This document shows, piece by piece, positions 9,902 through 34,298 of a stretch of 64,000 nucleotides of DNA. Made by a program: the position numbers and the translations under genes. The stretch covers positions 1 to 64,000 of the forward strand of contig JBJHCF010000022.1 in assembly GCA_050506795.1 (NCBI GenBank), read 5' to 3'. The notes beneath the pieces are model-generated. The model had not been told where the DNA came from. It did not search any database and was given only the letters and a program-made list of their open reading frames with translations. The number at the start of each line of letters is the position of its first letter. Position 1 is the stretch's first letter. Origin of the DNA: Opitutia bacterium. Its GTDB lineage: Bacteria; Verrucomicrobiota; Verrucomicrobiia; Opitutales; T3Sed10-336.

Positions 9902-9986
9902 GACAAGGATGAAAGCCTTTTGACACATTGGATTCAATCGATCAGGATGACTTCCGGACTCTAATCTTAATCCACAGGAATCGTTC

Positions 9987-10044
9987 TGGAACGTCGCTCC
10001 TTTCTAAAAGCATCGGTTTGTTGAGAAGGTCGTTCAGGCTGTAA
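9987..10044 (+). pseudogene. Collapsed 58-bp ghost copy of gene 39948-40883 (only the gene ends remain)
   Basis: 9987-10008 is identical to 39949-39970 (22 nt) and 10017-10043 is identical to 40856-40882 (27 nt). Confidence 0.85.
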
Positions 10045-10099
10045 GCGGCAATACTGTGTTCTTGACTTTAGGGGCATCGTTTTTGATCTTTTCGGCACG

Positions 10100-11008
10100 G
10101 TGAAGGTAGAAGCGGTTCCTGATTTTCCCGGTGCGATGGCGGAACCGGAGAGTTATTACCGGGGTGTGGATACGGCATCCCGCGTACGTTCGCGGAATGC
10201 GGTGGTCTTCATGCGCGACTCGAAGACCAAACTTCAGCAGAGTAATCTTTCGAATTTGTCCCATCATCGTTACGTCTGGATATTTGTCATCGAGACGGCT
10301 GGGGTGGTCAGCCTGGAGGGGAGTCGGATGCCACTGAAGGTGGGCGAGGCTTTGCTGGTGCTTCCGTACCAGTTTCATCACTATGTGGATATAAGTGATG
10401 CCTCGCTGCGCTGGCTCTTTGTAACTTTCGATCTGGAGTCCGGAGAGGAGTTGCTGGAGATCCTCAACCACCGGGTCCTGAAGCCGGATGAGCGGTCTTT
10501 AGCGCTGGTGCGTCGCATTGTCGAACTTTGGAACCGGACTGAGAAACAGGGCAGAGCGGCTGAATTGCTCGCGAGCCTGGATCATTTGCTGCTGCGACTG
10601 ACCGTGGAGGTGGATGAGCAGCAGGGTCGTCCGGAGGTGCAGCAGTTCTCATCACCAACGGTTGGCTGGATCGGCAGGGCGGAGTCACTTGTCGTGCGAT
10701 CTCTGCGCGAGGGCTGGAGTGTTTCCAACATCGCGGAGAAGCTCAACGTTTCGGAGCGGCATTTTCGGACGCGTTTTAAAGCGGAGACCGGCGTGAGTGT
10801 TCGCCGGTACAAAGCGAATATCCAGTTGCACCGCGCTCTTGCCGGGATGAAGGAGTCGCACTTGTCCATGGGGCAAATCTCCGAACTGAGCGGCTTTCAG
10901 TCACAGGCGGTGTTTACGCGATTTGTGCAACGCGAGACCGGCCGTTCGCCAACCGAGTGCCGGCGTCTTCTGCGGGCCGGAACGTTGGACGAAATTTTCC
11001 CCCGATAA
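10100..11008 (+). CDS. AraC family transcriptional regulator
   Basis: Cupin-like N-terminus (PYQFHHY); IAEKLNVSERHFRTRFK...SGFQSQAVFTRF. Confidence 0.9.
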   Translation: MKVEAVPDFPGAMAEPESYYRGVDTASRVRSRNAVVFMRDSKTKLQQSNLSNLSHHRYVWIFVIETAGVVSLEGSRMPLKVGEALLVLPYQFHHYVDISDASLRWLFVTFDLESGEELLEILNHRVLKPDERSLALVRRIVELWNRTEKQGRAAELLASLDHLLLRLTVEVDEQQGRPEVQQFSSPTVGWIGRAESLVVRSLREGWSVSNIAEKLNVSERHFRTRFKAETGVSVRRYKANIQLHRALAGMKESHLSMGQISELSGFQSQAVFTRFVQRETGRSPTECRRLLRAGTLDEIFPR

Positions 11009-11010
11009 CG

Positions 11011-11862
11011 TCACCCCGTTTGATAAAGCATTTCGGTGATTGATGCGGAGAATTCTTCCAGGATAGTCGCGGCGAAACGTTGAGGGCTTAGGCTTGGATC
11101 ATTCACTAGAGGATTGAGGTCGATGGCGTAGGAGAGGCGTTCGGCGTTGTCGATGGAGTGCGCGTCGAGGAAGGTGGCGTTCGCCAAACGGCGTCCGTCG
11201 ACGGCCGCGTCGTAGCGCTTTCCGCCGGTGATTTGGGAATCGAATAAGCCGCCCAACGCGGCCGCGAGATTCGGATGGGCGCTGACGTCGTGATGCACCT
11301 TGCGTTCTTCGGGAAGCCAGTCGAGGCTGCGCCATACTTCACAGCCGTAGACTTGTCGGGGTCGAAGCGTTTTCGGGAGCCTTCGGAGGGCCTCAAGAGT
11401 GGCAAGAAAAACGCCGACGTGGGTCGCGTGTTTGTCGAAGGGATTATGGGCGTAGACCACGTCCGGTCGCGCTTCTCGCAGGATCGCTTCGATTTCATCG
11501 ACCATCACACCGCGTTGCTCGGTATTCCTGGCTACGGCGCTCGGGTGCGCGAGTTGGGTGACAAAGGCGTACTGCCCGAGTGTCGCCGCGATCCTTTGTT
11601 CTTCGCAGCGGATCGCCTTCATCTCTTCGTCGGTACAGTCGGCGTAAGGGCCGGTGCGGGCGCTGCCGGATCCGTCCGTGCAGATAATGCCGCCGAACCA
11701 ACGGTCCCGGCGCCGGAAGCATTCAAGGATTCCGTGGAGAGCCATGAATTCAAGGTCGTCCTGGTGGGCGCCGATCCCGAGGTGGGTGGTGCGCGAGACC
11801 GAGCCTGGAGAAGGAGCGGATTCGGGAACAAAATGATTTTGCTGCGGGTGCGAGAGCTGCAT
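11011..11862 (-). CDS. PIG-L/LmbE family N-acetylsugar deacetylase
   Basis: AHQDDLE metal motif, TDGSGS, R..EQ, DKHATH. Confidence 0.9.
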   Translation of the reverse strand: MQLSHPQQNHFVPESAPSPGSVSRTTHLGIGAHQDDLEFMALHGILECFRRRDRWFGGIICTDGSGSARTGPYADCTDEEMKAIRCEEQRIAATLGQYAFVTQLAHPSAVARNTEQRGVMVDEIEAILREARPDVVYAHNPFDKHATHVGVFLATLEALRRLPKTLRPRQVYGCEVWRSLDWLPEERKVHHDVSAHPNLAAALGGLFDSQITGGKRYDAAVDGRRLANATFLDAHSIDNAERLSYAIDLNPLVNDPSLSPQRFAATILEEFSASITEMLYQTG

Positions 11863-11865
11863 TGG

Positions 11866-13269
11866 TCAAACGTTTCTTGGAATTTGTGGCAAACTGGCGG
11901 CGGCGATCGCCTGACCGTGCCGCCTGGTGGTTTCGTCAGGGATGTGAAAATTGATCTTCCCCGCCAGGTCGGGGAATTCGGCTTCAAGGACCGCTCGCGC
12001 CTCTTTCAGGATGCGGTCGCCTCCCGTGCCCGAGCTAACGCGGCCTAAAAAGAGGAGGTGGCGGAAGTCGTAAAAATCCGCGTAGTGTGCGAGAGCGTAG
12101 CCGAAACAGGTTCCGATAGTCGAATAGACCGCGGCGGCGCGCTCATCGCCCCGACTCATTTTATTTTGCAGAACCTCCAGTTGTTCGGGCAGATCGCACT
12201 GAGGATCGATTTGAATGTGGGACTCCGGCATGAGGCGAGCGACTCCCTGTTGAGAAAAATACTGTACGCCGCAACCGCGGTCACCGCTCCATTCATCGAT
12301 CGGAGCGTCGGGTCGGTAGTCAATGGGTGCGAAGGCGAGCTCATTGAGCCAACCGGTAATGCGGCCATGCGGGTCAACGTAGCCCGCAGCGAGACTGGTA
12401 CCCATGGCAATGCCGAGAATCGCCCCTTGGTTGATGGCGAGAGCGCCGGCAAGAGCGGTGACGTCGCCGTCGTTGACGATCTTGAAAGGGATGTCGTTCC
12501 ATTCGCTCCTTAACCCATGAAAGAGACCGCGAATGGAGCGGTCGAAATCCTTTTGACTCAGTCCCCGAAAGAGCGATGAAACGCGGGGCTCGTTGTCGAT
12601 ATAAATACCGGCTGCGCTGCCGCCAATGGCGTCCACTCGGGGCAGGTGGCGGGCGGCGCGTCGAAGGGTGTCCTGGATTCCTGCCCGATGATACTCCGGA
12701 TCGGTTTCGAAGTACGGGTTCCATTTCACCTCCTCGGAGAAGACGAGGTCGCCGTCAATCAAAGCGGCGCATTTGCGATCGCTTCCGCCAAGGTCGAAGC
12801 CAATGCGACAGCCATCGAGATGACGCTCTATGTGGGGTGGCGGTTGGCTGGTGACGGGATCCGCAACGGGTAGAGCACCACTTTCGACCGAGAAAGGCTT
12901 TCGGAAGCAGGTGTCGCCCAAAAATGCTTCGTCGAAGGCACGGCTTCCCGATCGGTGATAAGTTCGCTGCAGTTTCGCCGCGATTTCCGGCGCGCCCGCG
13001 ATAGTGACGAGGTTTCCGCCCCAGGCCCAGAGAAGTGTTTTGACGAGGCGCTCGCTGTAACGGACGTTTAATTTCCGGAACATCGCTTCGTCGGGTAAAA
13101 GCCGGGTAGGGAACGACCACGCCGATCCGTCCGGGCGGTGGACGGTGAAATGGGCCGGCCGCGCCTCTCGGTGGCTTTCCGTCATGGAACGGTAGGCACG
13201 GTTCCAGAGTGATGCGGGCAGGAAATCCGGGTCGAGTTGAGGAACGATGAGTGGCTCTATTTTGAGCAT
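11866..13269 (-). CDS. ROK family sugar kinase-like protein with N-terminal extension
   Basis: GFDLGGSDRK, NDGDVTALAG, GTSLAAGY, ELAF. Confidence 0.85.
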   Translation of the reverse strand: MLKIEPLIVPQLDPDFLPASLWNRAYRSMTESHREARPAHFTVHRPDGSAWSFPTRLLPDEAMFRKLNVRYSERLVKTLLWAWGGNLVTIAGAPEIAAKLQRTYHRSGSRAFDEAFLGDTCFRKPFSVESGALPVADPVTSQPPPHIERHLDGCRIGFDLGGSDRKCAALIDGDLVFSEEVKWNPYFETDPEYHRAGIQDTLRRAARHLPRVDAIGGSAAGIYIDNEPRVSSLFRGLSQKDFDRSIRGLFHGLRSEWNDIPFKIVNDGDVTALAGALAINQGAILGIAMGTSLAAGYVDPHGRITGWLNELAFAPIDYRPDAPIDEWSGDRGCGVQYFSQQGVARLMPESHIQIDPQCDLPEQLEVLQNKMSRGDERAAAVYSTIGTCFGYALAHYADFYDFRHLLFLGRVSSGTGGDRILKEARAVLEAEFPDLAGKINFHIPDETTRRHGQAIAAASLPQIPRNV

Positions 13270-15188
13270 GATCCGATAATGTCCAATCGCTTGAAGGCCT
13301 CGATTGCCTCGTACTCGGCGAGACCGAGTGAGTCGTAAGCGGCGGCGGTGGCGCGGTTGATCTTGCTGGCCAGGTTCCAGGTGTTACCGTCGCCATCCTT
13401 GCCGAGGTTCGGCGACTGATTTCGTTGGGTCTGGTGCTGGTAAATTCCTTGAATTTTGTTCGCGAACTCGTCGGGGGAGAGCGGGACGGCCATGTCGATT
13501 TCATGGGTTTCCCATTCCATTCCCGGACCCCGGTAGAGCCAGACGTGGCAATCTTTTACCCACGGTTCGGATTGGCTGGCGGCTAGAGCGCTCCGGAGAA
13601 TCTCGAAGCAAAGGGCGGGAACGGAGAGGGGATCGTTTCCGAAACCGGTGGCAAAGATCTGGTGGGGGCGGATTTCGTACAGAAGTTCGATCAGGCGCTC
13701 CACGTCTTTTTCGTCGGGCTGGAAGCGGCGGTAGCGGCCGTTCTCGTAAAAGGGCAGGTCGAGAAAACGGAGACGATTCGAATCGATGTCGAGGAGGCGG
13801 GCTGACGAGCGGCTTTCGGTTCTTCGGATCAATCCTTTCAATCGCCGAATTTCGGCGGGGTCATCGCCGAAATCTCCTTTCTCCCGGAGCTGGCGTTCCA
13901 GCAGGCGGGCGAATTTGAGGTCATCGGCTGATTCCCGCTCTTCGCCGGATTCAAGCATCAACTCAACGACGCGCCGGACCTCACTATCCGGCACGGCAAG
14001 GTTTCCGGAGGTTAGGTAGGCGACGGTGACATCGTTACCTTGATTGACCAGGCGGTGCAGCGTTCCGCCCATGCAGTAAATGTCGTCCAAGGGCTCGGGG
14101 CTGAGGATCAATGAACGTTTCGGAAACGGTTTTGCCCGTTCCGGGCGATGGCTGTCATCCGCGTCGGGTTTCCCTCCCGGCCATCCAGTGATGGTGTGCT
14201 GAGCGGTATTGAACATTCTGATATTAAGTTCATAAGCGGAGCCTTTTTCAGTTAACAGATCGGCCATACCGTTTTCCGAATAATCTTCTTCGATCAGTTT
14301 CAGAAGTGGCTTTCCGGTTTTACTGGAAAGCCAAAGAACGGCCTTCCGAATCATTGGCGGGTTCCACTCGACCATGCCGACCAGCCAGGGGTGACGAACG
14401 CGTGTCAGATGGCTCGCGGCGGCTTCGTCGATGCAAACGACGCAGTCCGGATGCTTTTGCAGAAAGCTGGCCGGGATCGCTTCTGTTTGCCGCCCTTCGA
14501 CCGCTTGCGCTATGACCTCGGCTTTTGCCTCGCCCCAGGCGAGAAGAAAAATCTTCCGGGCCTCGAGGATTGTGCCTACGCCCATGGTGATCGCGTGACG
14601 GGGAACGTTTTCCTCTCCGAGAAAATCCCGGGCCGCATCCCTTCGGGTAAGGCTGTCGAGGGTGATGAGTCGGGTGCGTGATTCCGACGTGGAGCCGGGT
14701 TCGTTAAAACCGATGTGTCCGGTCCGCCCAATGCCGAGGATCTGGATGTCGATGCCGCCGGCCTTAGTGATCGCCTCTTCGTAGGCGCGGCAGGAGGCGA
14801 GAACGTTTTCGCGAGGTACGGCACCGTCGGGCAGGTGGCAGTTCTCCGGTTTTAAATCGACCCGATTGAAGAACTGCTCCTGCATGAAGCGCAGGTAGCT
14901 TTCCGGGTGCTCCGCGGTAAGACCGTAATATTCGTCGAGATTGAAGGTGATGACGTTCTCGAAAGAGAGGCCTTCTTCGCGATGGCGCCGGATCAATTCC
15001 CGATAAAGCCGAACCGGGGTGGAACCGGTGGCCAGGCCGAGAACGGCCGGCTTTCCGGCAGCCCTGCGTGCCGTGATCAGTTCACCGATAGCGTCCGCGA
15101 CCCGTGCGCAAGCCTGGTCCGCGGAGGTGTAGATTGCGGTCGGAATATGTTCGCGCTGGGCGGATTCGAGATTCAAGACCTGACGCAT
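13257..15188 (-). CDS. nagB: Glucosamine-6-phosphate deaminase, long form with a C-terminal PIG-L-like domain
   Basis: LGLATGSTP, FNLDEY, GIGRTGHIGFNEPGS, ITMGVGTI; likely start MRQVL at 15188. Confidence 0.93.
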   Translation of the reverse strand: MRQVLNLESAQREHIPTAIYTSADQACARVADAIGELITARRAAGKPAVLGLATGSTPVRLYRELIRRHREEGLSFENVITFNLDEYYGLTAEHPESYLRFMQEQFFNRVDLKPENCHLPDGAVPRENVLASCRAYEEAITKAGGIDIQILGIGRTGHIGFNEPGSTSESRTRLITLDSLTRRDAARDFLGEENVPRHAITMGVGTILEARKIFLLAWGEAKAEVIAQAVEGRQTEAIPASFLQKHPDCVVCIDEAAASHLTRVRHPWLVGMVEWNPPMIRKAVLWLSSKTGKPLLKLIEEDYSENGMADLLTEKGSAYELNIRMFNTAQHTITGWPGGKPDADDSHRPERAKPFPKRSLILSPEPLDDIYCMGGTLHRLVNQGNDVTVAYLTSGNLAVPDSEVRRVVELMLESGEERESADDLKFARLLERQLREKGDFGDDPAEIRRLKGLIRRTESRSSARLLDIDSNRLRFLDLPFYENGRYRRFQPDEKDVERLIELLYEIRPHQIFATGFGNDPLSVPALCFEILRSALAASQSEPWVKDCHVWLYRGPGMEWETHEIDMAVPLSPDEFANKIQGIYQHQTQRNQSPNLGKDGDGNTWNLASKINRATAAAYDSLGLAEYEAIEAFKRLDIIGSCSK

Positions 15189-15524
15189 AACAAGAGTATA
15201 GCAAGTGGGCAGATTCGGATCCTTGACTTTATCGGATTGGTTTTTGATGTTTTCGGTACCTTGATCGACGGCATAAAGCGCGGAAGGGGGGTCCCGAAAC
15301 CGGGAGCCGACTTGCAACCTTCGATCAACCGGTTTGAGGCCCCTGGTGGAGCCAAATCTACGGTGGCTTTTTGACCGTTTCCTTAGCTTCGCGTGTGCAG
15401 TCGCCGGCATAAAGACGATGCTGAACGGCCTGGATCGAGATCGCAGGTGTCATAAAAAATATAAAAATATATTATTTCTGATTGACGGTTATTTCGGGAG
15501 TCTGCGAGACTGCCGAAACGAGTG

Positions 15525-16247
15525 ATGGATTCCCAGGATAAGCAACTTCCTTTATACGTGCGTGTGCAGGATTATATTCGTGCTGCCATAGGCTCGGAGT
15601 ATCAACCGGGAGACCTGTTGCCGAGTCAGCAGGAGATCGCGCGAGCCACGGGAACCAGTTTGATCACGGTTAAACGGGCCATAGACGAACTGGCTCGGCA
15701 GAGACTGTTGGAGTCGGTTCGGGGGCGTGGAACGGTGGTGAAAAGGCGTCCGGAGGTGGCGGACCAACACCAGGGGGTATCGAGTTGGACGGACAGCATA
15801 AGCGGCCTCGGGATGGAACCTCGCACGGCCTGGACCAAAATAAGTGAAAGGGTTCCGCCAAAAACGGTGAAAGGTATTCTCGGACTCAAGGCACGGAAGA
15901 GGACGGTAGTCGTGGAGCGCCTGCGCACTGTGGACGGATCTCCTTTTTGTCTAATGAGTAATGAGTTGCCGGCAGATCTGACGCCGGGGTTTGGGAAACG
16001 GGGGATGACTTCGGAATCGATCTACAAGGTATTGGAGGATCAGTATGATCTCTGTCCCGCCTGGGCGGATGAAGAAGTGTCCGCGCGTGAATCGACGGTC
16101 GAGGAGAAGCGGTATCTGGGGCGCGATGCTCGCATCGTCGTCGAGGTGCACCGGACATCCTATTTAGCCGACGGCCGCCCTTTGGAGATCGCGGTCCTTC
16201 GTGCACCCGCTCACTCCTACCGCTATCGGGTGCAGGTGCGACGTTAA
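15525..16247 (+). CDS. GntR/HutC (UTRA) family regulator
   Basis: PLYVRV...LPSQQEIA...SLITVKRAI...RGRGT, followed by a UTRA domain. Confidence 0.92.
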   Translation: MDSQDKQLPLYVRVQDYIRAAIGSEYQPGDLLPSQQEIARATGTSLITVKRAIDELARQRLLESVRGRGTVVKRRPEVADQHQGVSSWTDSISGLGMEPRTAWTKISERVPPKTVKGILGLKARKRTVVVERLRTVDGSPFCLMSNELPADLTPGFGKRGMTSESIYKVLEDQYDLCPAWADEEVSARESTVEEKRYLGRDARIVVEVHRTSYLADGRPLEIAVLRAPAHSYRYRVQVRR

Positions 16248-16384
16248 TTTTGGCCGGGGGAACTTAAATAGGAAACATGGACTTAATTCTGTTCTGAAAG
16301 CCGGGGAGAGAACTTCGTTAGTCCGGTGTCGGCATGAATATCCGTGGATGCAAACGATAAAGTTTAAACCTGAAAAAGAAACAA

Positions 16385-17155
16385 ATGACATCAGCCCAAG
16401 AATATTATCGAAAGACGGAGGAACTCCTGAGTCGAATCAGTGAGAGCCAGATTCCCGCGATTGAAGAGGCTGCGGAACTCTGCGCCGAGCGAATCGCCAA
16501 AGGGGGGCTCGTGTTTCTCTTTGGCAACGGACACTCGCGCATGATGTGCGAGGAAATGACGCCTCGACAGGGGTGCTTCGTCGGGTTCGTGGCCCTCGTT
16601 GAGTTGGCCCTATCGAACCACGCCAACATCGTTGGAAGCAACGGTCTTCGCGCGCCGTTGCACCTGGAAAAATACGAAGGCTATGCGGAGGAGCTGTTGA
16701 AGAGTTTTAAGTTCGGGCCTAACGATGCCTTCATCATTATTTCGACCAGCGGCATTCGTCCGGTGATTGTGGAAATGGCCCTTGGGGCGAAGAGGCGGGG
16801 ACTGCCAGTGATCGCACTGGTATCACGAAACCATTGTGACAGTTCGACGCCCAATCACTCCTCCGGGAAAAAACTGACCGATGTCGCCGATGTTGTTCTG
16901 GATAATCATGCACCTTCCGGGGACTGCGTTCTTGAGTTGGACGGCCTGGAATGGCGAACGGGGCCGGTCTCGACTGTGACCGGGGGAATGCTCATAAATA
17001 TGCTTCGTTGCGAAGTGGCCGAGCGGCTGTTGAAGAAAGGTCATAAGCCGACAATTCTGCCGAGTCATCAGTTCGTCGGTAACACCAGTGCCGACGAGCA
17101 GTTGGAAGCGTTCTACGAAGATTACCGCAGGAGTCTGAGTCATCTTTACGAGTAA
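16385..17155 (+). CDS. SIS domain sugar-phosphate isomerase-like protein
   Basis: FGNGHS, ISTSG, DVVLDN. Confidence 0.85.
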   Translation: MTSAQEYYRKTEELLSRISESQIPAIEEAAELCAERIAKGGLVFLFGNGHSRMMCEEMTPRQGCFVGFVALVELALSNHANIVGSNGLRAPLHLEKYEGYAEELLKSFKFGPNDAFIIISTSGIRPVIVEMALGAKRRGLPVIALVSRNHCDSSTPNHSSGKKLTDVADVVLDNHAPSGDCVLELDGLEWRTGPVSTVTGGMLINMLRCEVAERLLKKGHKPTILPSHQFVGNTSADEQLEAFYEDYRRSLSHLYE

Positions 17156-17159
17156 AAAC

Positions 17160-17957
17160 GTGAGCCACGATCTTCAGGGAAAGGTAATCCTCATCTCGGG
17201 TTCGACCGGTATAGCGGCTCGTACTGCCATACTGGCAGCCCGGGAGGGGGCGGCGGTGTTTATCGTCAGTCGAACGGAAAGTAGCTGCCGGGAATTATCC
17301 GTGGAGATTTCCGGGGAGGGCGGAAAATGCGGGTATAGGGCCATGGATCTGACGGAAGCGCAGAGTGCTGAAAAAGCCGTCGAAGCGGCAGTGCGGACTT
17401 TCGGGCGACTCGATGCGCTCTACAATGTTGCCGGGATTAGCGGACGGAAGTTTGGCGATGGTCCCGTGCATGAGTGCGCGGAGGACGGATGGGATACCAC
17501 GCTCGATACCAATGCGAAAAGCATGTTCTTTATGTGCGGGGCGGTCATTCGCCAGATGCTCCGCCAGGAACCGGCTCCGGACGGGCAGCGCGGCTGTATC
17601 CTGAACATGGCGAGTGTCCTCGGATTCTCTCCGTCGCCCCGTTTTTTTTCCACGCATGCCTATGCGGCGAGTAAAGGAGCGATTATTGGAATGACCAAAT
17701 CGATGGCCGCTTCTTATGCCTTGAAGAAAATCAGGATTAACGCGATTGCCCCGGGTCTGATACGGACACCGATGAGTGCGCGGGCGCAGGAGAACGCGGA
17801 GATTCTTGATTTGATGAAAACAAAACAACCGCTCGCCGAGGATTTAATCGAGGCCGATGATGTCGCATCGGCCTCCCTGTTTTTGCTTGGAAGTCAATCC
17901 CGGATGATAACCGGCGAGATTCTGACTGTAGATGGGGGTTGGTGCGTCAGCGGTTGA
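17160..17957 (+). CDS. SDR family oxidoreductase
   Basis: NVAG, YAASK, RINAIAPG, VDGG. Confidence 0.92.
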   Translation: MSHDLQGKVILISGSTGIAARTAILAAREGAAVFIVSRTESSCRELSVEISGEGGKCGYRAMDLTEAQSAEKAVEAAVRTFGRLDALYNVAGISGRKFGDGPVHECAEDGWDTTLDTNAKSMFFMCGAVIRQMLRQEPAPDGQRGCILNMASVLGFSPSPRFFSTHAYAASKGAIIGMTKSMAASYALKKIRINAIAPGLIRTPMSARAQENAEILDLMKTKQPLAEDLIEADDVASASLFLLGSQSRMITGEILTVDGGWCVSG

Positions 17958-17990
17958 GGTAGAGCGGGCAAGAATATTCAGCAGCTGGAT

Positions 17991-19340
17991 ATGTTTACTT
18001 ACAGAAAAAAGATTCCGACCGGCTTTCACTGCCAGGTCCTGGTTGTCGGAGCGGGTTCGGCGGGAGCGACGGCGGCTATAACCGCAGCGCGCGCGGGAGC
18101 CGATGTCTTGTTGGTCGACCGTTACGGGTTTCTCGGGGGAACCAGTACCGCGGTGTTGGATACGTTCTACGGATTTTACACGCCGGGGAAGGTGGAGAAA
18201 AAGGTTGTGGGAGGAGTTCCTGATGCGGTGGTGGACGGGCTGAAGGGCTACAACATGTGCATCAAGCGTCCGAATACCTATGGCGCCGGGTCTGGGATCA
18301 CCTATAATCCCGAGTATTTGAAGGTGGTGTGGGAGAACCTTGTGAAGGAATCGGGGGCAAAGATCCTGCTTCATTCCTTTGTACAGGATGTGGTGGTTGA
18401 AGAAGGGCGTGTGGTCGCGGTTTTGGTCGCGACGAAGGCGGGCTTGCAGTGGATAGCCGCGGATACTGTGGTCGACGCATCCGGCGACGCGGAGATTTGT
18501 TATTATGCAGGATTCTCCTATGAATTGGCCGGTGAGCAAGAGCCTGCTCAATCTCTGACGACAACGTTCAAAATGTGCAATGTCGATCTGACCAAACGGA
18601 GGACACTTTCCAAAGAAGGTCTTCATGCATTAATGAAGGAGGGAGCGGAGAGTGGCGAGTATCGTCTTCCACGGCGCGAAGGCAGCGATCATGCGACACC
18701 GGTTCCTGGAACAACGGCAACGGTAATGACCCGGTTGAACTCTTTTGAACGTCGTGCGGGGAGAGTGGTCAACGCTACCGATCCCGAACTCCTGAGCCGG
18801 GCGGAGACTGAAGGGCGTCGCCAGGCGATTGAATATGCCCGTTTCCTGCGCGACAAAGTGCCGGGGTACGAGAAGGCGGACCTGGTTGGGTTCGGAGTTC
18901 AGATCGGAGTGCGAGAGACCCGCCGTGTGCATGGCGATTATCGTTTGACCCGGGAGGATGTGCTTCATGCTCGTCAGTTTGACGATCAGGTCGGGCTTTG
19001 CGGAGCGCCGATTGAGGATCATCATTCCGGTGCGGACACGAAGTGGCAATACCTGCCGGAAGGTGAGTGTGTTGGAATCCCGTATCGCGCGCTTTTGCCA
19101 CGGGACGCAGTAAACGTTTTGGTTGCCGGGCGTTGTTTCTCGGCGACGCACGACGCGCATGCCAGCGTGCGTTCGATGGGACAATGCATGGCGATGGGAC
19201 AGGCGGCCGGCGCTGCCGCTGCGATGGCGGCTCAAGGCAAAATAACCCCGCGGGAGATTGCTCCAAACGGTTTGCGGGATGTGTTGCGGAACCTTGGCGC
19301 GGTGTTGGAAACGCCTCCGACGGGGGAGGAAGCGTTGTGA
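17991..19340 (+). CDS. FAD-dependent oxidoreductase (FAD_oxidored family)
   Basis: VVGAGSAG, FLGGTST, VDASGDA, VRETRR, IPYRALLP, AGRCFS, CMAMGQAAG. Confidence 0.9.
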   Translation: MFTYRKKIPTGFHCQVLVVGAGSAGATAAITAARAGADVLLVDRYGFLGGTSTAVLDTFYGFYTPGKVEKKVVGGVPDAVVDGLKGYNMCIKRPNTYGAGSGITYNPEYLKVVWENLVKESGAKILLHSFVQDVVVEEGRVVAVLVATKAGLQWIAADTVVDASGDAEICYYAGFSYELAGEQEPAQSLTTTFKMCNVDLTKRRTLSKEGLHALMKEGAESGEYRLPRREGSDHATPVPGTTATVMTRLNSFERRAGRVVNATDPELLSRAETEGRRQAIEYARFLRDKVPGYEKADLVGFGVQIGVRETRRVHGDYRLTREDVLHARQFDDQVGLCGAPIEDHHSGADTKWQYLPEGECVGIPYRALLPRDAVNVLVAGRCFSATHDAHASVRSMGQCMAMGQAAGAAAAMAAQGKITPREIAPNGLRDVLRNLGAVLETPPTGEEAL

Positions 19341-20296
19341 ACTACGCGATCGGTTTTGATATTGGGGGCACACGGGTCAAGTGCGGCGCGGTGACCGCCG
19401 AAGGAAAAGTGTTGGCGCGACGCGTTGTGTCGACCCGACCCGAGGCAGGGCCGGAAGCATTGTTGTCGATGCTCGCCACGCAGGTTGAGGGGATTCGGAC
19501 CGATATCGAGGGTGACCTGATTGGGGTAGGACTCGGACTGTCGGGAGCGGTCGATCCGGACCTGGGGGCGGTTTGCCTTCCTGGTAAATTCAAGGATCTG
19601 GAAGGTTTTCCGATTGTTCCCGGACTGGCGACGGTTGCCGGCGTTCCGGTGGCGGCTGACAACGACGCGCGGCTGGTTCTGCTGGCGGAACGACGCTTTG
19701 GGCTGGCCGCGGGAAGGGGTTGGGTGGTTTCGTTGACGATCGGAACGGGCCTCGGTTCGGGCGTGATCCTTGACGGGAAGGTTCTGCGCGATCCACATTT
19801 GCAGTTTGGGACCCAGCTTGGGCATATTGTCATTCAAGCCGACGGCGGGAAGCTTTGTTTGACCCGTGCCCATGGTACGGGGGAGTCGCTGTGTTCGGCG
19901 ACTGCCTTGGCTATGGGGGTAAGGGATGGATTGCAGCGGGGTATCCCGTCGGTCTTGAGTGATCGTTACTTCGCCGATCCTCAATCAGTTGATTTTTCGG
20001 CGGTCATCGAAGGAGTTGAGGCCGGCGACCGGCTTTGTCTGCATGAAATGGAGGCTTGGCGGAGGCGTCTCGGATGGGTGATGGTCAACGCGGTGCATGC
20101 TTACGCTCCGGAGTTGATAATCATCGGGGGCGGTGGGGCACATGCCTGGCGGCATTTCCTGGAATTCCTTCGGGACCATGTGAATGCCCATACCTTTCGA
20201 TATCCTCCGGGCGAACCGGTGGCGATCGAAGTTTCAAACCTTCTGGAGGATGCCGGATTCCTGGGGGCGGCGAGTTTGATCTGGAACGAGAAATGA
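19337..20296 (+). CDS. ROK family sugar kinase
   Basis: GFDIGGT, DNDA, TIGTGLGSG, GHI; GTG start overlaps the upstream stop. Confidence 0.9.
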   Translation: MNYAIGFDIGGTRVKCGAVTAEGKVLARRVVSTRPEAGPEALLSMLATQVEGIRTDIEGDLIGVGLGLSGAVDPDLGAVCLPGKFKDLEGFPIVPGLATVAGVPVAADNDARLVLLAERRFGLAAGRGWVVSLTIGTGLGSGVILDGKVLRDPHLQFGTQLGHIVIQADGGKLCLTRAHGTGESLCSATALAMGVRDGLQRGIPSVLSDRYFADPQSVDFSAVIEGVEAGDRLCLHEMEAWRRRLGWVMVNAVHAYAPELIIIGGGGAHAWRHFLEFLRDHVNAHTFRYPPGEPVAIEVSNLLEDAGFLGAASLIWNEK

Positions 20297-21258
20297 GTTT
20301 TGTTCGGACAGTCCTGGGTGACGTGGCAATGGCGGAGTTGGGGGTTTGTTACGCCCATGAACACATCATCATCGATGAGAGCTATATTACCCAGATCTAT
20401 CCTGAGTTCCAGCTCGATAGTGTTGATAAAGGGGCGATGGAGTTGAAGGATTTCTTTTCCGCCGGTGGTCGTGCCATGGTTGATTCCATGCCCTGCGATT
20501 GTGGCCGAAATGTCGAAAAGTTGGCTGAGATTTCACGCCGATCGAAGGTGCATATACTGGCACCCACCGGAATTCACCTGAAGAAATATTATCCGAAGGG
20601 TCATTGGTCAACGCGTTCATCCGCGGAAATATTGGCCGGTCTATTCGTCGGTGATATCGAAGCGGGGATCGATCGTAACGACTATGGGGGGCCGGAGGTA
20701 CAGCGGACAGCTCACAAGGCGGGGCTGATCAAAGTAGCCGGCGGCTGTGAACGGGGTGGATTGAACGAGCATGAGAAGAAGATCTTCGAGGCGGCGGCCA
20801 TCGCACACGCGAGAACGGGCGCGCCTATTTTGACCCACACGGAACAAGGCGCCGGGGCATTGGAACAAGTGGATTGGCTGGAGAAGAATGGAGTCGATAT
20901 CCGGCATGTGGTGCTATCACATACCGACAGGAAGCCCGACTTGGGATACCATAAGGAAGTCCTTTCCAGCGGTGTTTTTGTAGAATACGACTCCGCCTTT
21001 CGATGGAAACCGGAGCAGGGGAACCCTACGGCCGATCTCGTCGTCGCGCTCTTCGAGTGTGGATTCGGCGACCAGATTATGCTCGGCATGGATGCGGCCC
21101 GGCATCTGTATTGGAAACGTTATGGAGGAAGTCCCGGGCTGACGTTTCTTTTGGATCGTTTTTGGTCCCTCCTGCAGGAAATGGGCATGGCCGAGGCCGA
21201 ATTCCGGATGATATTCTGCGATAATCCCGCACGTGCGTATTCATTTGGGGAGCGGTAG
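20293..21258 (+). CDS. Phosphotriesterase-family amidohydrolase (lactonase-like)
   Basis: RTVLG, HEH, GLIKVA, THT, SHTD, GMDA; ATGA overlap. Confidence 0.9.
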   Translation: MSFVRTVLGDVAMAELGVCYAHEHIIIDESYITQIYPEFQLDSVDKGAMELKDFFSAGGRAMVDSMPCDCGRNVEKLAEISRRSKVHILAPTGIHLKKYYPKGHWSTRSSAEILAGLFVGDIEAGIDRNDYGGPEVQRTAHKAGLIKVAGGCERGGLNEHEKKIFEAAAIAHARTGAPILTHTEQGAGALEQVDWLEKNGVDIRHVVLSHTDRKPDLGYHKEVLSSGVFVEYDSAFRWKPEQGNPTADLVVALFECGFGDQIMLGMDAARHLYWKRYGGSPGLTFLLDRFWSLLQEMGMAEAEFRMIFCDNPARAYSFGER

Positions 21259-21477
21259 GGTAGGACGTAGTTATCAATTTAGCGTGCGTGGGCGTGGGGA
21301 TCGCCTTCATGAAGGTCGATGTTTTCCGGCCAGGGAAGTTTCGCGCCCTGGGTTTGGAGGTGCGTTTGGGAACCGGAACGGAGGTCGGCATTGGAGTGAA
21401 TGCTCCGGGGAGAGCGTTCTTTCTCCAAAGCGAAGGCCGCGAGCAGTGACGAGATAGATCAAGAGGCGAAAATAGCG

Positions 21478-21508
21478 TTGACTTCCACTTTTTCAGGATT
21501 GTATACAC
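21478..21508 (+). promoter_or_regulatory. Candidate sigma70 promoter overlapped by a TGTATACA palindrome (candidate GntR/FCD operator)
   Basis: TTGACT at 21478; TGTATACA at 21500-21507 at the -10 position. Confidence 0.4.
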
Positions 21509-21565
21509 GTATTCATTCCGGATTCGATTATCGGGAACTGGAGAAAAATACTTCTTTGATAACCA

Positions 21566-24169
21566 ATGTCTTTCCTTCGAATGTCCCTCGTTACCAGCGT
21601 CTTAAGCGTTTGCGTATTCTTGCCTGGATTTGCTCTGGCCTCATCGGAGGCTACGACGTCGGAAGACCTGTATCGATGGGAGGAACTGCCGTCGATCCCT
21701 GATGCGGTGGGTCTTGCGGCTCCTTTCGCCGGCGTGCACAACGGCGCTTTGATCGTGGGGGGAGGTGCGAATTTCCCGGAAGGTATGCCGTGGGAGGGGG
21801 GCGAGAAGGTCTGGCACGATGAGGTTTATGTTTTGACTGAACCGGATGGTGAATGGCGTTCCGGTTTTAGGCTCCCGCGTCCGCTTGCGTACGGAATTTC
21901 CATCACGACCCCGGAGGGAGTGCTTTGTATCGGCGGCGACGATGCGACTCGTTTCTACAGGGATGTCTTTCTCTTGACCTGGGAGGATGGTGAAATTGGC
22001 GTTACGGAGATGCCGTCGCTGCCGGCTCCGGCGGCCTATGCCACGGGAGCCATGATCGGTCGGACCGTGTATATCGCAGGAGGTCTGAGCCGGCCGGAGC
22101 GGGAAGGACCACCTTTGCACACGTTTTGGTCGTTGGATCTATCGAACCCGGAGTTAGGTTGGGAAGAGTTGGAGCCCTGGCCGGGCGAACCCAGGTTTCT
22201 TTCGGTGGCGGCTGTTCAGGGAGGATCATTCTATCTGCTGAGCGGCGCTACAATGGTGGAGGCCGATGGGGCCTGGAAGCGGGAGTACCTAAGCGATGGA
22301 TACCGGTACACTCCTGGAAAGGGGTGGTCCCGAATCGCGGACTTGCCACGGCCCGCTGTGGCGGCTCCTTCACCCGCTCCGTCCCTGGGTGCCCACCACT
22401 TTGGGGTGATTGGTGGCGACGATGGCTCAAATATGGGATTTGATCCGCTTTCAGAGCATCCCGGTTTCACACGTGAGACTTTGGTCTATCATACTGTTAC
22501 CGATACATGGTCCTTGCGTTCTGAGATCCCGTTCACCTCCCCGGTGACGGTGCCGACCGTGAACTGGCAGGGAAAACTTGTGATTCCAAGCGGGGAAGTT
22601 CGACCAGGCGTCCGATCTCCCTCAGTATGGATGGGAGAGCCTTTTCGAGGGCGTGCGCAGTTCGGCCCGTTAAATTACGGAGTCCTGGTGCTTTATCTCA
22701 TGGCTCTGGTGATCATCGCCATGTTCTTTTCCCGTTATCAGGGAAACACACGGGAGTTTTTTCTCGGAGGCCAACGAATTCCGTGGTGGGCGGCGGGCCT
22801 TTCGATCTTTGGAACTCAATTGAGCGCGATCACGTTTATCGCGATTCCGGCCCAGGTGTATGCCAACGACTGGACCTATATTCTTGCAAATCTAACCATC
22901 GTGTTGGTCGCGCCATTGGTGGTGTTTTGTTATCTGCCATTTTATCGGCGACTCAATATCACGACGGCCTACGAGTACTTGGAACAGAGATTCAATTTAC
23001 CTGTGAGGCTTTTTGGCAGCGCTGCGTTCTGCTTTTTACAGCTTGGTAGAATGGGCATTGTTCTTTTCATACCGGCGATCGCTCTTTCGGCCGTGACCGG
23101 GATCAATCTTTTTGTGGCAATTCTTTCGATGGGTGTCCTGGCGACGCTTTATACGGTTGTCGGGGGAATTAAGGCGGTGATCTGGACCGACGTGTTGCAG
23201 GTTGTCGTGCTAATGGGTGGCGCGCTGCTTTGTCTGGTTCTGATAGCGATAGGGGTGAATGGCGGCGTGCCTGAGATTGTGGCGATGGGGGCGGCGGACG
23301 GAAAGTTCAACACCTTTAATTGGACTTGGAACGCCGCGACGGCTGCTGTGTGGGTTGTTCTGTTGGGAAATTTTTTGGCCAACCTGGTGCCGTATTCCGC
23401 GGATCAGACCGTGGTGCAGCGGTATCTAACAACCAGCAGTTACCGGCAGGCGGCGAAGTCAATCTGGACAAACGCGATTCTGACCATTCCGGCAAGCCTG
23501 ATCTTTTTCAGCCTGGGGACGGCTCTTTATGTCTTCTATAAATCGAACCCGGCGATGCAGAACCCACACTTGGCATCCGACGCTATTTTGCCCCTTTTCA
23601 TCGCCCAGATGTTGCCCCCCGGCGTCGCCGGATTGCTCATTGCCGCCGTTTTCGCGGCGGCAATGTCAAGTCTTGACAGCAGCATGAACAGTGTGGCGAC
23701 CACCATTACCACCGACTACCGCCGTTTGAGGTCGCGAGTGACTGAGTCGCAGGCCCTGCGTCTCGCTCGGTGGATTACTTTAGGGCTCGGAATTTTCGGA
23801 ACCGGCACAGCCCTGTTCCTGGCGAGTTTTGAAATCCTTTCCCTTTGGGACGCGTATCTGACGGTTCTGGGTTTGTTTGGGGGCAGTTTGGCGGGGCTTT
23901 TCGTTCTGGCCATATTCACTCGTCGCGCCAACGGAAATGGTGCATTGGTAGGCGCAGTTGCGAGCGCGGCAATTCTCTACTGGACGCAGGCCAGTACAGA
24001 CCTCCATTTTTTTCTTTACGCGGGAGTGGGCATTGGAAGTTGTTTCATCGTTGGCTATTTGGCCAGTCTGGTCATTCCCGGACCTGATAAAGAGATTCTC
24101 AATCTCACCGTTTTTGCCATGAATCCTCCTGGGGAATCCATTAAGCCAGAATCACCTATGAAGGTGTAG
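21566..24169 (+). CDS. Kelch beta-propeller (NanM-like mutarotase) fused to a sodium:solute symporter (SiaT-like sialic acid transporter)
   Basis: Signal peptide; GGANFP and Kelch repeats; then SSS motifs FFLGG..IPWWAAGLSIF, DQTVVQRYL, AAMSSLDSS. Confidence 0.9.
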   Translation: MSFLRMSLVTSVLSVCVFLPGFALASSEATTSEDLYRWEELPSIPDAVGLAAPFAGVHNGALIVGGGANFPEGMPWEGGEKVWHDEVYVLTEPDGEWRSGFRLPRPLAYGISITTPEGVLCIGGDDATRFYRDVFLLTWEDGEIGVTEMPSLPAPAAYATGAMIGRTVYIAGGLSRPEREGPPLHTFWSLDLSNPELGWEELEPWPGEPRFLSVAAVQGGSFYLLSGATMVEADGAWKREYLSDGYRYTPGKGWSRIADLPRPAVAAPSPAPSLGAHHFGVIGGDDGSNMGFDPLSEHPGFTRETLVYHTVTDTWSLRSEIPFTSPVTVPTVNWQGKLVIPSGEVRPGVRSPSVWMGEPFRGRAQFGPLNYGVLVLYLMALVIIAMFFSRYQGNTREFFLGGQRIPWWAAGLSIFGTQLSAITFIAIPAQVYANDWTYILANLTIVLVAPLVVFCYLPFYRRLNITTAYEYLEQRFNLPVRLFGSAAFCFLQLGRMGIVLFIPAIALSAVTGINLFVAILSMGVLATLYTVVGGIKAVIWTDVLQVVVLMGGALLCLVLIAIGVNGGVPEIVAMGAADGKFNTFNWTWNAATAAVWVVLLGNFLANLVPYSADQTVVQRYLTTSSYRQAAKSIWTNAILTIPASLIFFSLGTALYVFYKSNPAMQNPHLASDAILPLFIAQMLPPGVAGLLIAAVFAAAMSSLDSSMNSVATTITTDYRRLRSRVTESQALRLARWITLGLGIFGTGTALFLASFEILSLWDAYLTVLGLFGGSLAGLFVLAIFTRRANGNGALVGAVASAAILYWTQASTDLHFFLYAGVGIGSCFIVGYLASLVIPGPDKEILNLTVFAMNPPGESIKPESPMKV

Positions 24170-24206
24170 TTCGAGAGGGAATTTAAAAAAGTCCTTATAT
24201 ACACAA

Positions 24207-24953
24207 ATGACACAGAAGCAAAGAGCCTACGATTACCTTAGGGAAAAGCTGATCGCCGGTGAACTGTCTCCGGGAAGCCGGCTTTCCGATATCGCTTTGG
24301 CGAAGGAGATCGGAATCAGCCGAACTCCGATTCGTGAAGCGATCAATCAACTGGCGAATGAGGATCTGGTGCAGTTGGTGCCCCACAACGGAGCTTTCGT
24401 AAAAGTTCCCGACGAGGAGGAACTAATCGAGCTGTACGATCTTAGAAAACTTCTGGAGACCTATGCCGTAAAACAAGCGGCAGGTAATATGAGCGAGGGA
24501 AACCTGCGCCAGCTGATCGAGATGATCACACACATGGACATGATTATCAAAGAATTAAAAAACTCTGGCCGAGAAGCGCCGACCGCTGCCATTCGTCGAC
24601 GTTGGGTGATGACGGATTATGCTTTTCACCTGGTTCTATTCAAGTCGTGCGGAAATCGAAAAGTGATGCGGATTGCGAGTGATCTCCGGATGTTGACACA
24701 GGCTTTTATTTTCCGGAAGGAAGATCCAAAAATTTCGCCGATTGAAGTGATGCGGATCGCGAACAAGGAGCACCGGGAGGTGTTTCGCGCCCTCGAATCC
24801 GGGAAAGGCGACGAAGCCAGCGAAGTTATCGATCGGCATCTCGATCGGGCGAAAAACGCCACCCTGGCGAATTACGCCACTGTATGTCAATCGACTCCAG
24901 AACAAGAACCGGAGTGGCTGACGTCGGTACGGGGTGTGATCAATAATGCCTGA
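24207..24953 (+). CDS. GntR family regulator with FCD domain
   Basis: ISRTPIREA, ELYDLR..LE, D..FH, EH.. Confidence 0.92.
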   Translation: MTQKQRAYDYLREKLIAGELSPGSRLSDIALAKEIGISRTPIREAINQLANEDLVQLVPHNGAFVKVPDEEELIELYDLRKLLETYAVKQAAGNMSEGNLRQLIEMITHMDMIIKELKNSGREAPTAAIRRRWVMTDYAFHLVLFKSCGNRKVMRIASDLRMLTQAFIFRKEDPKISPIEVMRIANKEHREVFRALESGKGDEASEVIDRHLDRAKNATLANYATVCQSTPEQEPEWLTSVRGVINNA

Positions 24954-26058
24954 GGAATGGTCAAATCCCATGAAAACTCGACTGCATCCCGAACCGAACA
25001 ACCTGCCGGACCGGGTTGCTGAGTTCTTAAAACAAGGCATTCTGGAGGGAAAGTACCAGGGAGCTTTCCCCAGCGAGCGAAAACTTGCCGAGGAAGTTGA
25101 TGTCAGTCGCATGACAATACGAGCGGCTTTGAGAAAGGTGCAGGAGGACGGTCTGATAGAGATTTCGGGCAAACGACGGATGATTCCACCTGAGTTTCGA
25201 AAGGACCCGGAAGCGGATGGAGCTTCTGCGGAACTCGTCATTCTAAGCGCGGAACCTTTGGAAGAAGTTTACCATTCGCACGTATTCATCTTCGAAATGT
25301 TACGTGAGAAACTGGCGCGCCATGGATTTGGGTTATCGATTCAAGTTTCATCCCGCTTTGGCATGACTGGAAAAGGAAAGGCTCTTGCAGAAACGGTCGA
25401 TCAGCATCCGAACGCGTCTTGGTTGCTGATTCGAATTCCACCAGCCGGGCAGCGCTGGTTCATCGAGAACAACCTGCGAACCATTGTCATGGGGACGGCG
25501 GCGCTTGGACTGGACACGGTCTCCATGGACATCGATCATGAAGCCACTTGCTTCCACGCCACCTCGGTCCTGGCGGCCCGAGGCAAGAAGTCGATCGCCT
25601 TCGTGCGAAGGGCTGCCAACCTGATTGGGGATGAGCGGAGTGAGGCGGGGATGCGGAATGCCTGCAAGAGAGCGCAAGTCAAAGGCACCGCTCACCGGCT
25701 CGCCGGAGATTCGGCCTCCACAATCGACTTGCTCGAATCACTTCGGCGGGAAAACCGCCTTCCGGATGGAATCATTGCGGGAGATCCGGCGATCTTCCTG
25801 AGCGCTTACAGTTTCTGTTACAAGCATGGACTACGCATTCCCGAAGACATCGCGCTCATCTCCCGGAACGATGACATCCTGCTTGACGCGTTGAGGCCGA
25901 CGGTTGCGCGTTATCGGGTAAATGATTCGGTGGTACTCAACCGGTTATGGCGTCTTACGCTGCCGGTTCTGAGGAACCAAGTGTATAAGAAAAGCCCGCA
26001 TCTTCTCATGCCCGACTATGTTCCGGGTGATAGTGCGGGAGTGCCTGGTATTAGCTGA
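24946..26058 (+). CDS. GntR HTH + LacI-type sugar-binding domain regulator
   Basis: FPSERKLAEEVDVSRMTIRAAL; C-terminal GLRIPEDIALIS. Confidence 0.88.
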   Translation: MPEEWSNPMKTRLHPEPNNLPDRVAEFLKQGILEGKYQGAFPSERKLAEEVDVSRMTIRAALRKVQEDGLIEISGKRRMIPPEFRKDPEADGASAELVILSAEPLEEVYHSHVFIFEMLREKLARHGFGLSIQVSSRFGMTGKGKALAETVDQHPNASWLLIRIPPAGQRWFIENNLRTIVMGTAALGLDTVSMDIDHEATCFHATSVLAARGKKSIAFVRRAANLIGDERSEAGMRNACKRAQVKGTAHRLAGDSASTIDLLESLRRENRLPDGIIAGDPAIFLSAYSFCYKHGLRIPEDIALISRNDDILLDALRPTVARYRVNDSVVLNRLWRLTLPVLRNQVYKKSPHLLMPDYVPGDSAGVPGIS

Positions 26059-26095
26059 AACAACAAACACCATTTTGAACGGTAATCATGGTCTA

Positions 26096-26107
26096 TGGTT
26101 TATACCA
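26096..26107. promoter_or_regulatory. Candidate GntR operator TGGTTTATACCA (dre-like)
   Basis: TGGT-N4-ACCA near-palindrome about 80 nt upstream of nanA. Confidence 0.45.
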
Positions 26108-26183
26108 AGGTTCGTTACTTGTGATCTCTTGGAATCGGGTCGAAACTTCTATTATCAATTGCCCGCAAGGGTAGGGAATTCAG

Positions 26184-27197
26184 ATGACAAAACTAAACGG
26201 ATTAATCGCGGCAGCGTTCACCCCTTTTCGGGGCGGAGAGATAAATGTTGAGGTCATTCCTCCATATGCTCGATATCTTGCGGCCAATGGGATTTCCGGT
26301 GTGTTTGTAAATGGCACGACCGGCGAAGGGCACTCCCTCACCGACGATGAGCGGATGCTTCTGGCCGAGACCTGGGTAAAGGCTGCGCCGCCGAATCTTA
26401 AAGTACTTGTGCATGTCGGACACAATTCGCTTCCGGTGGCGCGTGAACTGGCACGTCATGCGATGGAAATCGGCGTAGGGGGCTTCGCTGCGATTGGCCC
26501 GAGTTTTTTCAAACCGTCGCTGGAAGAGTTGGTGAGTTTCATGGCTGAATTGGCGCAGGCCGCTCCGAATCTGCCATTTTATTACTACCACATTCCGGCA
26601 ATGACAGGTATTACAATTAGGATGCTCGATTTTTTGCAAGTTGCGGAGCAAAGGATACCAAATCTGACGGGGATCAAGTTCACGCATGAGAATATGATGG
26701 ATTACGGCCTCTGCCAGGACTATGAGGGAGGAAAATTCGACATGGTTTTCGGACGTGACGAGATGTTGGTCTGCGGGCTTTCACTTGGAGCCAAAGCAGC
26801 GATCGGCAGCACCTACAACTTCGCCGCCCCCCTCCATAACGCGATTCTGAAAGCGGCGTCGGACCACGACCTTGATCGGGCGCGATCACTCCAGTGTCTG
26901 TCGATGAAGGTGGTCATGGCTTGCACAGATGAAACTCCCAACGGATTGTCAGCCATTCGAGCTCTTACGGAATGGAGATCCGGTCTCGATTTTGGCCCGA
27001 TGCGTGCCCCGAATACCGGCGTTGGCAAAGAAGGTATCAGGCGCCTAAAAGAAAATGCACAAGCTTGCGCAGGTGACCACCTGTCGGAAGCCGTTCACGA
27101 TACACCGCAGCCAGAGCGGTATGTGAATGATGATGACGAAAAAGGGGTTTTTGTTTCACCCAGTCTGGAGCGAAACAGTCGGAACTCCGAAGAATAA
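26184..27197 (+). CDS. nanA: N-acetylneuraminate lyase (DHDPS family)
   Basis: NGTTGEG, PFYYYHIP, GIKFT, FGRDE, IGSTYN; sialidase and SSS transporter context. Confidence 0.85.
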   Translation: MTKLNGLIAAAFTPFRGGEINVEVIPPYARYLAANGISGVFVNGTTGEGHSLTDDERMLLAETWVKAAPPNLKVLVHVGHNSLPVARELARHAMEIGVGGFAAIGPSFFKPSLEELVSFMAELAQAAPNLPFYYYHIPAMTGITIRMLDFLQVAEQRIPNLTGIKFTHENMMDYGLCQDYEGGKFDMVFGRDEMLVCGLSLGAKAAIGSTYNFAAPLHNAILKAASDHDLDRARSLQCLSMKVVMACTDETPNGLSAIRALTEWRSGLDFGPMRAPNTGVGKEGIRRLKENAQACAGDHLSEAVHDTPQPERYVNDDDEKGVFVSPSLERNSRNSEE

Positions 27198-27242
27198 TAA
27201 ATACTAACCGGCCCACATTTTGGCCAAACTACTTGATATCGA

Positions 27243-27968: not shown

Positions 27969-28065
27969 AATAGTCCACGTAAGGAATCCTGAAACATCAC
28001 GCTAACCGTGGATACATGGTTTAATCTGTAAAGTTGTTGGTGAAACCCAAAGGAGAAATAGCAAT

Positions 28066-31746: not shown

Positions 31747-31767
31747 GGTTTGAAAGTTAGGTGGATT

Positions 31768-31801
31768 GGAGTCCGCCCGGATTGAAAAACGGGCGGACTC
31801 C
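31768..31801 (+). terminator. 12-bp stem-loop (terminator or mRNA stabiliser)
   Basis: ggagtccgcccg-10 nt-cgggcggactcc; no clear U-tract. Confidence 0.55.
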
Positions 31802-34263: not shown

Positions 34264-34298
34264 TCCGGGCTACGGATCTAAAAAAATCACCCACAATT

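Follow-up and report, generated by a model that had tools for sequence, protein, structure and literature searches.

In animal mitochondria, gene order changes through duplication-random loss (DRL or TDRL), as described in PMC5745709. For bacteria, the SNAP hypothesis on gene order has been put forward (PMC7055797, PMC9016547); its authors propose that old duplications be sought through their remains, pseudogenes that still have a matching active counterpart, and they describe direct evidence in modern species as lacking as of 2020 (PMC7055797). Segmental duplication has been presented as a likely driver of changes in operon clusters (PMC8046335). At the level of single deletions, the account of Haloquadratum walsbyi reports that repeat-mediated deletion leaves one copy of a 4- to 20-bp repeat, and that an element was shortened from 390 to 52 bp, that is, to its concatenated terminal sequences (PMC3119063). 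Our literature search, with most subscription journals outside its scope, returned no paper on the locus analyzed here, nor a natural bacterial case combining reciprocal remnants with an outgroup order.

Here, we describe a 59-nt intergenic stretch in a window of 64,000 nucleotides (the whole stretch of DNA analyzed, on contig C22) from an Opitutia bacterium. This stretch is a ghost of the TIM-barrel gene located 30 kb further on, and it is probably an inert scar of a duplicated sugar-catabolism cluster that underwent reciprocal deletion. As in mitochondrial DRL (PMC5745709), the duplicate has the same orientation, one paralogue per gene has been lost, remnants and duplicated noncoding DNA are left behind, and the derived order can be obtained from the outgroup order by duplication and loss. 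The TIM-barrel gene, the AraC-family regulator gene, an operator-like site, and the PF06439 gene each occur twice, in direct orientation, on one contig; the left side lacks intact TIM-barrel and PF06439 genes and the right side an intact AraC gene. Three of the four DRL features are present, and on the fourth, an intrachromosomal tandem origin, the identities of the cluster conflict with the species tree. Unlike the mitochondrial case, the locus is a bacterial accessory cluster of ~30 kb, more than one round is needed, and its two copies, instead of stemming from one tandem event, may be diverged xenologues.

The locus also has the anatomy proposed under SNAP (PMC7055797), pseudogenes together with matching active copies, the likeness being one of sequence alone. 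Unlike the genes considered there, those reciprocally lost here are catabolic and accessory, and are not known to be essential. Under SNAP, a duplication is first selected for gene dosage in a new niche, and reciprocal inactivation of required genes then keeps the duplicate from segregating. Reciprocal loss is present here, but neither congener assembly (67% and 92% complete) contains an intact TIM-barrel gene, so this gene may be dispensable.

Table 1. Features of the locus, with positions in the window
Feature	Position	Strand	Remarks
5' arm of ghost	9986..10008	+	First 23 nt of TIM-barrel (PF01261) gene; first base C, not A
Deletion joint	10001..10011	+	In 11-nt imperfect direct repeat, 9/11 alike between 5' and 3' parent sites
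3' arm of ghost	10006..10044	+	39 nt, last 13 codons including TAA
Operator/promoter-like site, copy 1	10055..10098	+	Before AraC; two TTGA-led half-sites 21 nt apart
Intact AraC-family regulator	10100..11008	+	PF12833, PF02311
PIG-L deacetylase, unannotated gene X, nagB-like deaminase	11011..15188	-	Divergent from AraC in outgroups
Operator-like site, copy 2	15216..15259	+	Before nagB; orientation as copy 1
nan/sialidase-like block	15522..36982	+	GntR, SIS, SDR, FAD oxidoreductase, ROK, PTE, NanM-SSS, NanA-like, BNR proteins, DUF455
3-Keto-disaccharide hydrolase (PF06439) remnant	37063..37197	+	3' end of gene; in-frame stop; 76% over 135 nt
Intact Gfo/Idh/MocA gene	37192..38598	+	Last 200 nt are a remnant in G001
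rapZ	38649..39518	-	RapZ label holds
FGE-sulfatase gene remnant	39743..39862	-	76% over 121 nt; PF03781 on G001 copy
Intact TIM-barrel gene	39948..40883	+	Sugar isomerase/epimerase-like, PF01261, 311 aa
AraC reciprocal ghost, three pieces	40882..41024	+	From 10241-10307, 10434-10443, 10821-10893
Operator-like site, copy 3	41037..41072	-	Before TIM-Gfo fusion gene 41165-43045; 82% over 34 nt to 15223-15256
Intact 3-keto-disaccharide hydrolase	43131..43853	+	PF06439
tRNA-Ala(GGC)	45622..45697	-	Bounds variable region, 3' end toward cluster; core genes beyond

The ghost was recognized in a preliminary description through two exact matches in the same orientation, and re-matching recovers both: positions 9987-10008 equal 39949-39970 over 22 nt (E = 4.3e-4 against the whole genome), and 10017-10043 equal 40856-40882 over 27 nt (E = 2.4e-7). 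In 100 simulated 64-kb windows, exact direct repeats reached 18 nt at most. The joined gene ends stand as first reported, and their extent, given as 58 bp with about 880 nt missing, is refined to 59 nt (9986-10044) with 877 nt missing relative to the intact TIM-barrel gene, which is the only strong match in the genome. The ghost is ~90% identical overall, and its join is out of frame. The gene labels of that description also hold (AraC, nagB, a DHDPS/NanA family member below the NanA cutoffs, BNR-repeat sialidase-like, RapZ, and TIM barrel PF01261). A contig from run X1, which is possibly the source sample and so not independent, shows 0 differences over 7500-12500 and 36000-45114. Its length (40,983 nt), depth (14.7), and coordinates are the same in both comparisons, so it is likely one gap-free record spanning both copies. 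Run X2 contains only a small share of the words, and none of the pieces listed for it spans the ghost; we did not use it.

The repeat at the deletion joint is the best one between the first 60 and the last 70 nt of the gene, with a perfect shared core of AAA (10006-10008); 53 of the 300,700 position pairs in the TIM-barrel gene reach 9/11. At this repeat, the ghost matches each parent site at 10 of 11 positions, the 3' parent allele being taken from G001, one of two congeners, and from L026, the closest intact TIM orthologue found (93% protein identity). A short direct repeat is found at both breakpoints with one copy left, as in repeat-mediated deletion. Like the H. walsbyi deletions (PMC3119063), the joint has kept one repeat copy and concatenates terminal sequences; unlike them, it concerns an ordinary enzyme gene, with an imperfect repeat (9/11) and a perfect core of 3 nt.

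The letters between the two exact matches are the allele of L026 and G001, and it is the intact 40-kb copy that has departed from this allele: L026 and the G001 remnant read AAA AGY ATC GAT, the intact copy CAG AGT ATT GAT, and the ghost AAA AGC ATC GGT. Because of this agreement, we take the 3' arm as 39 nt long. It agrees with the G001 remnant at 35 of 39 positions, with the intact copy at 33, and with L026 at 32. Among its six differences from the intact gene, four go back to changes in the latter and one to a change in the ghost, the sixth being ambiguous. Since most of these changes lie on the side of the intact gene, the ghost reads as the descendant of an older sister copy and not as a copy of the present-day gene. 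The change of TAG to TAA proposed earlier is a real difference, but its direction is not retained: TAA is likely the old stop. In the intact gene, TAG falls on a further deletion joint, that into the AraC remnant, which likely accounts for the difference. As for the reported change of ATG to CTG, the difference exists and may reflect a substitution or an additional breakpoint, the upstream regions of ghost and intact copy giving no convincing alignment.

The preliminary description identified the TIM ghost alone, without its reciprocal counterpart from AraC or any of the other scars. The AraC ghost begins directly after the intact TIM-barrel gene; its first piece (40882-40947) is 78% identical to AraC positions 10241-10307 and its last (40950-41024) 77% identical to 10821-10893, with the exact 10-mer from 10434-10443 between them. 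Its right boundary is common with a remnant on contig C61 of the second congener, G002, with which it groups at 6 of 6 informative sites (6:0:0). Conservation is higher in the TIM ghost than in the AraC ghost (54/59 versus 110/143; Fisher p = 0.017), which counts against our reading of the scars as duplication with reciprocal deletion; a later deletion of the TIM copy would explain it. The PF06439 ghost matches the intact G001 gene at 108 of 135 positions and its own intact gene at 103 of 135, with informative sites at 7:3:1 and an outgroup polarity of 3:2:2. A 5' piece of this ghost at 37011-37028, proposed by a long-gap alignment (15/18), was too weak to count. The FGE-sulfatase gene is intact on contig C14 and also at the corresponding position in G001. 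On C14, it lies adjacent to its neighboring gene (62971-65455), and on G001:C12 the pair is found at opposite ends of a 13-kb cluster (497-1623 and 14642-16007; 81% and 91% identity).

The operator-like site of ~45 nt is present in three copies, before AraC, nagB, and TIM-Gfo. Copy 1 is 82% identical over 38 nt to 15222-15259 and aligns with the congeners and with locus L108; from the half-site spacing usual for the AraC family, we presume that it binds AraC. Between copies 2 and 3, the nan/sialidase-like block has the most atypical codon use of the window (median coding score 0.109, against 0.354 genome-wide) and is absent at the corresponding place in both congeners, G001 carrying a sialidase-like remnant there. 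This inner 15.5-37.0-kb block may have its own history, with other boundaries.

Several further elements were observed in the window. To the left of the ghost, 4520-4558 and 4874-4907 are further likely scars, with short same-orientation matches to the sulfatase gene (8482-8519) and to the gene at 4957-6696 (6620-6653), respectively. Gene X (11866-13269, 467 aa), conserved between nagB and the PIG-L gene in L108 and G157, has no Pfam or NCBIfam match, nor has the 1,226-aa protein encoded at 28066-31746, whose internal repeats are common with the sialidase-like gene. Two dispersed repeat families with many copies on other contigs occur at 35543-35708 and 37041-37070, in the form of heptamer-rich arms and of a short GC-rich palindrome-like unit. 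Near the tRNA-Ala(GGC) gene, a 45-nt direct repeat lies downstream (45453-45497 and 45576-45620), a 6S RNA (RF00013, 67 bits) is found between the tRNA gene and lpxI (45817-45999), and ~200 nt including the tRNA gene are 88% alike to another tRNA locus, C7:104630-104830.

The ancestral order can be read from relatives. We searched 401 genomes of the order and found an AraC match (E <= 1e-45) in 24, of which 21 lie outside the genus. In 20 of these 21, nagB and AraC are divergent around one operator-like site, and the remaining one ends at a contig edge, so the gene order in our window is derived. Six further AraC loci lack nagB; each is a second match in a genome where the divergent pair occurs as well. 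In L108 and G157, nagB is followed by gene X and the PIG-L gene. In our window, AraC stands at the opposite end of the operon, and the operator-like site is present at both the old and the new positions; copy 2 likely marks the original place of AraC's upstream region, and on G002:C61 an AraC fragment directly follows the corresponding site. A site at both places would be expected from duplication of the unit with reciprocal loss.

The two congeners carry differently eroded versions of the cluster. G001:C12 reads TIM remnant (3' end), site, AraC, PIG-L, X, nagB, site, sialidase-like remnant, PF06439 (intact), Gfo remnant, TIM-Gfo, rapZ, FGE (intact), tRNA-Ala, the variable region being bounded by tRNA-Ala there too. 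The order on G002:C61 is TIM remnant, site, AraC remnant, PIG-L, X, nagB, site, AraC remnant, TIM-Gfo remnant, rapZ, TIM remnant (two pieces), AraC remnant, TIM-Gfo, PF06439; its three AraC fragments are not accounted for by a single duplication, and more than one round of duplication and loss is needed. On G002:C58, nt 167-414 of the TIM-barrel gene are joined to the site, followed by an intact AraC. TIM remnants therefore precede AraC in both congeners, each with breakpoints of its own, and conservation of the 59-nt join is thus not seen. In G002:C61, a gene-less 132-nt element (L022:9225-9356) interrupts the first TIM remnant (3' end); it bears inverted repeats of 30 nt and what looks like a target duplication of 4 nt. 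Over TIM nt 176-270, the four copies give informative sites of 1:2:1 and no grouping. Since an intact TIM-barrel gene directly before AraC was found in none of 80 metagenome loci and none of 4 order-level loci, we could reconstruct the intact parent unit only from its remnants.

Taken together, these scars point to an amino-sugar catabolism cluster beside tRNA-Ala that would have acquired a same-orientation duplicate, with the copies ~30 kb apart. The left copy would then have lost its TIM-barrel and PF06439 genes and the right copy AraC, the second TIM copy losing 877 nt by a deletion that likely passed through the 11-nt imperfect repeat. An earlier, smaller duplication-loss event would have moved AraC from its ancestral divergent position by nagB to the front of the operon, leaving an operator-like site at both places. 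The scars and their orientation, the repeat at the joint, the outgroup order, and the differing congener breakpoints are observed; we infer the order of these steps, as we do the inertness of the ghost and the source of the duplicate.

Whether the duplicate arose by tandem chromosomal duplication or by recombinational uptake of a diverged congener copy is, in our estimate, about evenly balanced. Sampled 1-kb fragments of the genome have a median identity of 89.8% to G001 (147 of 184 aligned) and of 74.4% to G002 (55 of 97). Third-codon identity of the flanking core genes is 74-86% to G001 and 49-61% to G002; that of the cluster genes is 62-70% to G001 and 73-80% to the G002 contigs. Identity to G001 is at the genome-wide level for the ghost's 3' arm and spacer (87-90%) and for the Gfo gene at its 3' end (89%). 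This pattern would fit a cluster pieced together from a resident copy and an incoming one, the arms compared being short. The G002 cluster contigs have a GC content of 0.55-0.57, against 0.58-0.64 for eight other G002 contigs, and could be mis-binned; old paralogy would then explain the identities, and the horizontal-transfer part would therefore be weaker. On balance, we lean slightly toward uptake for at least part of the cluster, and a horizontal contribution to patches of the whole cluster is plausible. A more specific proposal, that a congener-derived cluster copy is replacing the resident one gene by gene, with the ghost being the resident TIM-barrel gene made redundant by its incoming twin, is tentative and rather doubtful. 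If true, the locus would be a natural SNAP-type intermediate in which a horizontally made partial diploid takes the place of a tandem duplication, and a half-finished gene-order rearrangement in a free-living bacterium, each step of which is still legible.

Genomic islands anchored at tRNA genes carry att direct repeats. The preliminary description had suggested that the 10.0-39.9-kb block may be an island that integrated by recombination through the TIM-barrel gene, without an integrase, one copy of the gene later collapsing; in such a scheme, a circle would have come in through a single crossover, and the ghost would be a collapsed flanking repeat. The direct orientation of the two copies, their bracketing of the block, the tRNA-Ala at the edge of the region, the atypical codon use throughout 1-45.5 kb, and cluster identities discordant with the species tree all speak for such an entry, and the region on the 3' side of the tRNA gene, being variable and of atypical composition, resembles a tRNA-anchored island. 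The homology is, however, wider than the TIM-barrel gene, reaching AraC and the PF06439 gene; genes to the right of the block are as G002-like as those inside it, so that the discordance continues past 39.9 kb; and G001 has the module from the TIM remnant to rapZ with no second TIM copy before tRNA-Ala. The predicted empty site, with the sulfatase gene followed directly by the TIM-barrel gene, was found neither in the two congeners (best sulfatase match 37%) nor in the 80 metagenome loci. Unlike in tRNA-anchored islands, the repeat is a decayed gene scar and the contig bears no integrase: none of the 12 PF00589 (tyrosine integrase) matches of the genome is on C22, and no recombinase domain was detected among the 50 window proteins scanned. 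A BLAST search of the genome (82 contigs) for a displaced 3' piece of tRNA-Ala(GGC) returned other tRNA-like loci and no exact 3' fragment. We thus retain from the earlier interpretation the two copies, one of them collapsed by deletion, and consider entry of the block through the TIM-barrel gene improbable.

The preliminary description also named an excision substrate as an alternative; in this reading, the 22- and 27-nt repeats would persist because a 30-kb circle can be cut out or amplified through them. A perfect match of 27 nt could support rare homologous or slippage recombination, but the ghost is ~90% identical overall with changes of its own, the PF00589 matches all lie on other contigs, and the congeners have no matching pair. 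The only X1 joints listed are the same contig at its other homologous place, in contigs that drop rare variants. Such a role is very unlikely. A third reading, a small RNA or leader pairing with, or mimicking, both ends of the TIM mRNA, draws on the ghost's identity to both ends, on an AGGA 7 nt upstream of CTG, and on a 12-codon frame. The ghost nevertheless folds like its shuffles on both strands (z of 0.24 and 0.04), 9880-10200 contains no promoter- or terminator-like match and no Rfam match, and the join is not conserved, with three different remnants before AraC in the two congeners, one of them interrupted by an element; we regard this RNA as highly improbable. Finally, the chance of an assembly chimera is negligible, even for an 82-contig genome whose sole full match among public runs is possibly the source sample, given a separately built contig that covers both sites without difference, ancestral alleles in the ghost that the intact copy lacks, and analogous remnants in congeners.

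Returning to duplication with reciprocal loss, a census of intergenic matches to intact genes, made with a simple custom gene caller and with high-copy repeats masked, indicates how ordinary such scars are. Curation retained 81 of 168 matches and dropped 87 (shorter than 30 nt, at least half of the parent, a long open frame, at a contig edge, or less than 1 kb from the parent). On the contig of their parent gene, 23 curated remnants were found against 1.8 expected, 22 of them in the same orientation. Within 50 kb of the parent there are 18 in 4.94 Mb of this fragmented assembly (3.6 per Mb; 17 in the same orientation). The same pipeline gave 5 in 1.6 of the 5.8 Mb of G157, the one control genome (3.1 per Mb). 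The density is therefore ordinary, and we rejected an exceptional abundance of local remnants in this genome. The bias toward the same orientation did not appear in this small control (3 of 5). Three other both-ends ghosts passed curation (on C1, C14, and C57), and seven other joints, hand-picked and so not a random sample, show short overlapping homology, one alignment being off-register. An alternative census by exact-match chaining was uninformative (43 collinear against 34 reverse-order control pairs, mostly in repetitive genes). The C57 ghost (24239-24674) derives from the beta-helix gene of the window (2030-4045; 87-92% identity, ~1.75 kb deleted) and adjoins a GntR-like paralogue, and contig C6, another heavily shuffled region, carries five curated remnants that have the orientation of their parent genes and lie 4-80 kb away from them.

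In itself, the locus reflects ordinary turnover of a genome, yet it records a likely change in bacterial gene order with unusual clarity. The 59 nt themselves likely do nothing; their value lies in the evidence that they give on changes of gene order in bacteria. Short matches to gene ends on either side of a block can, as here, mimic att sites. The similar remnant density in a relative implies that this class of scar is common and that a systematic census across genomes is feasible. With the outgroup order and three independently eroded congener versions, the traces make duplication followed by reciprocal deletion testable at base resolution.
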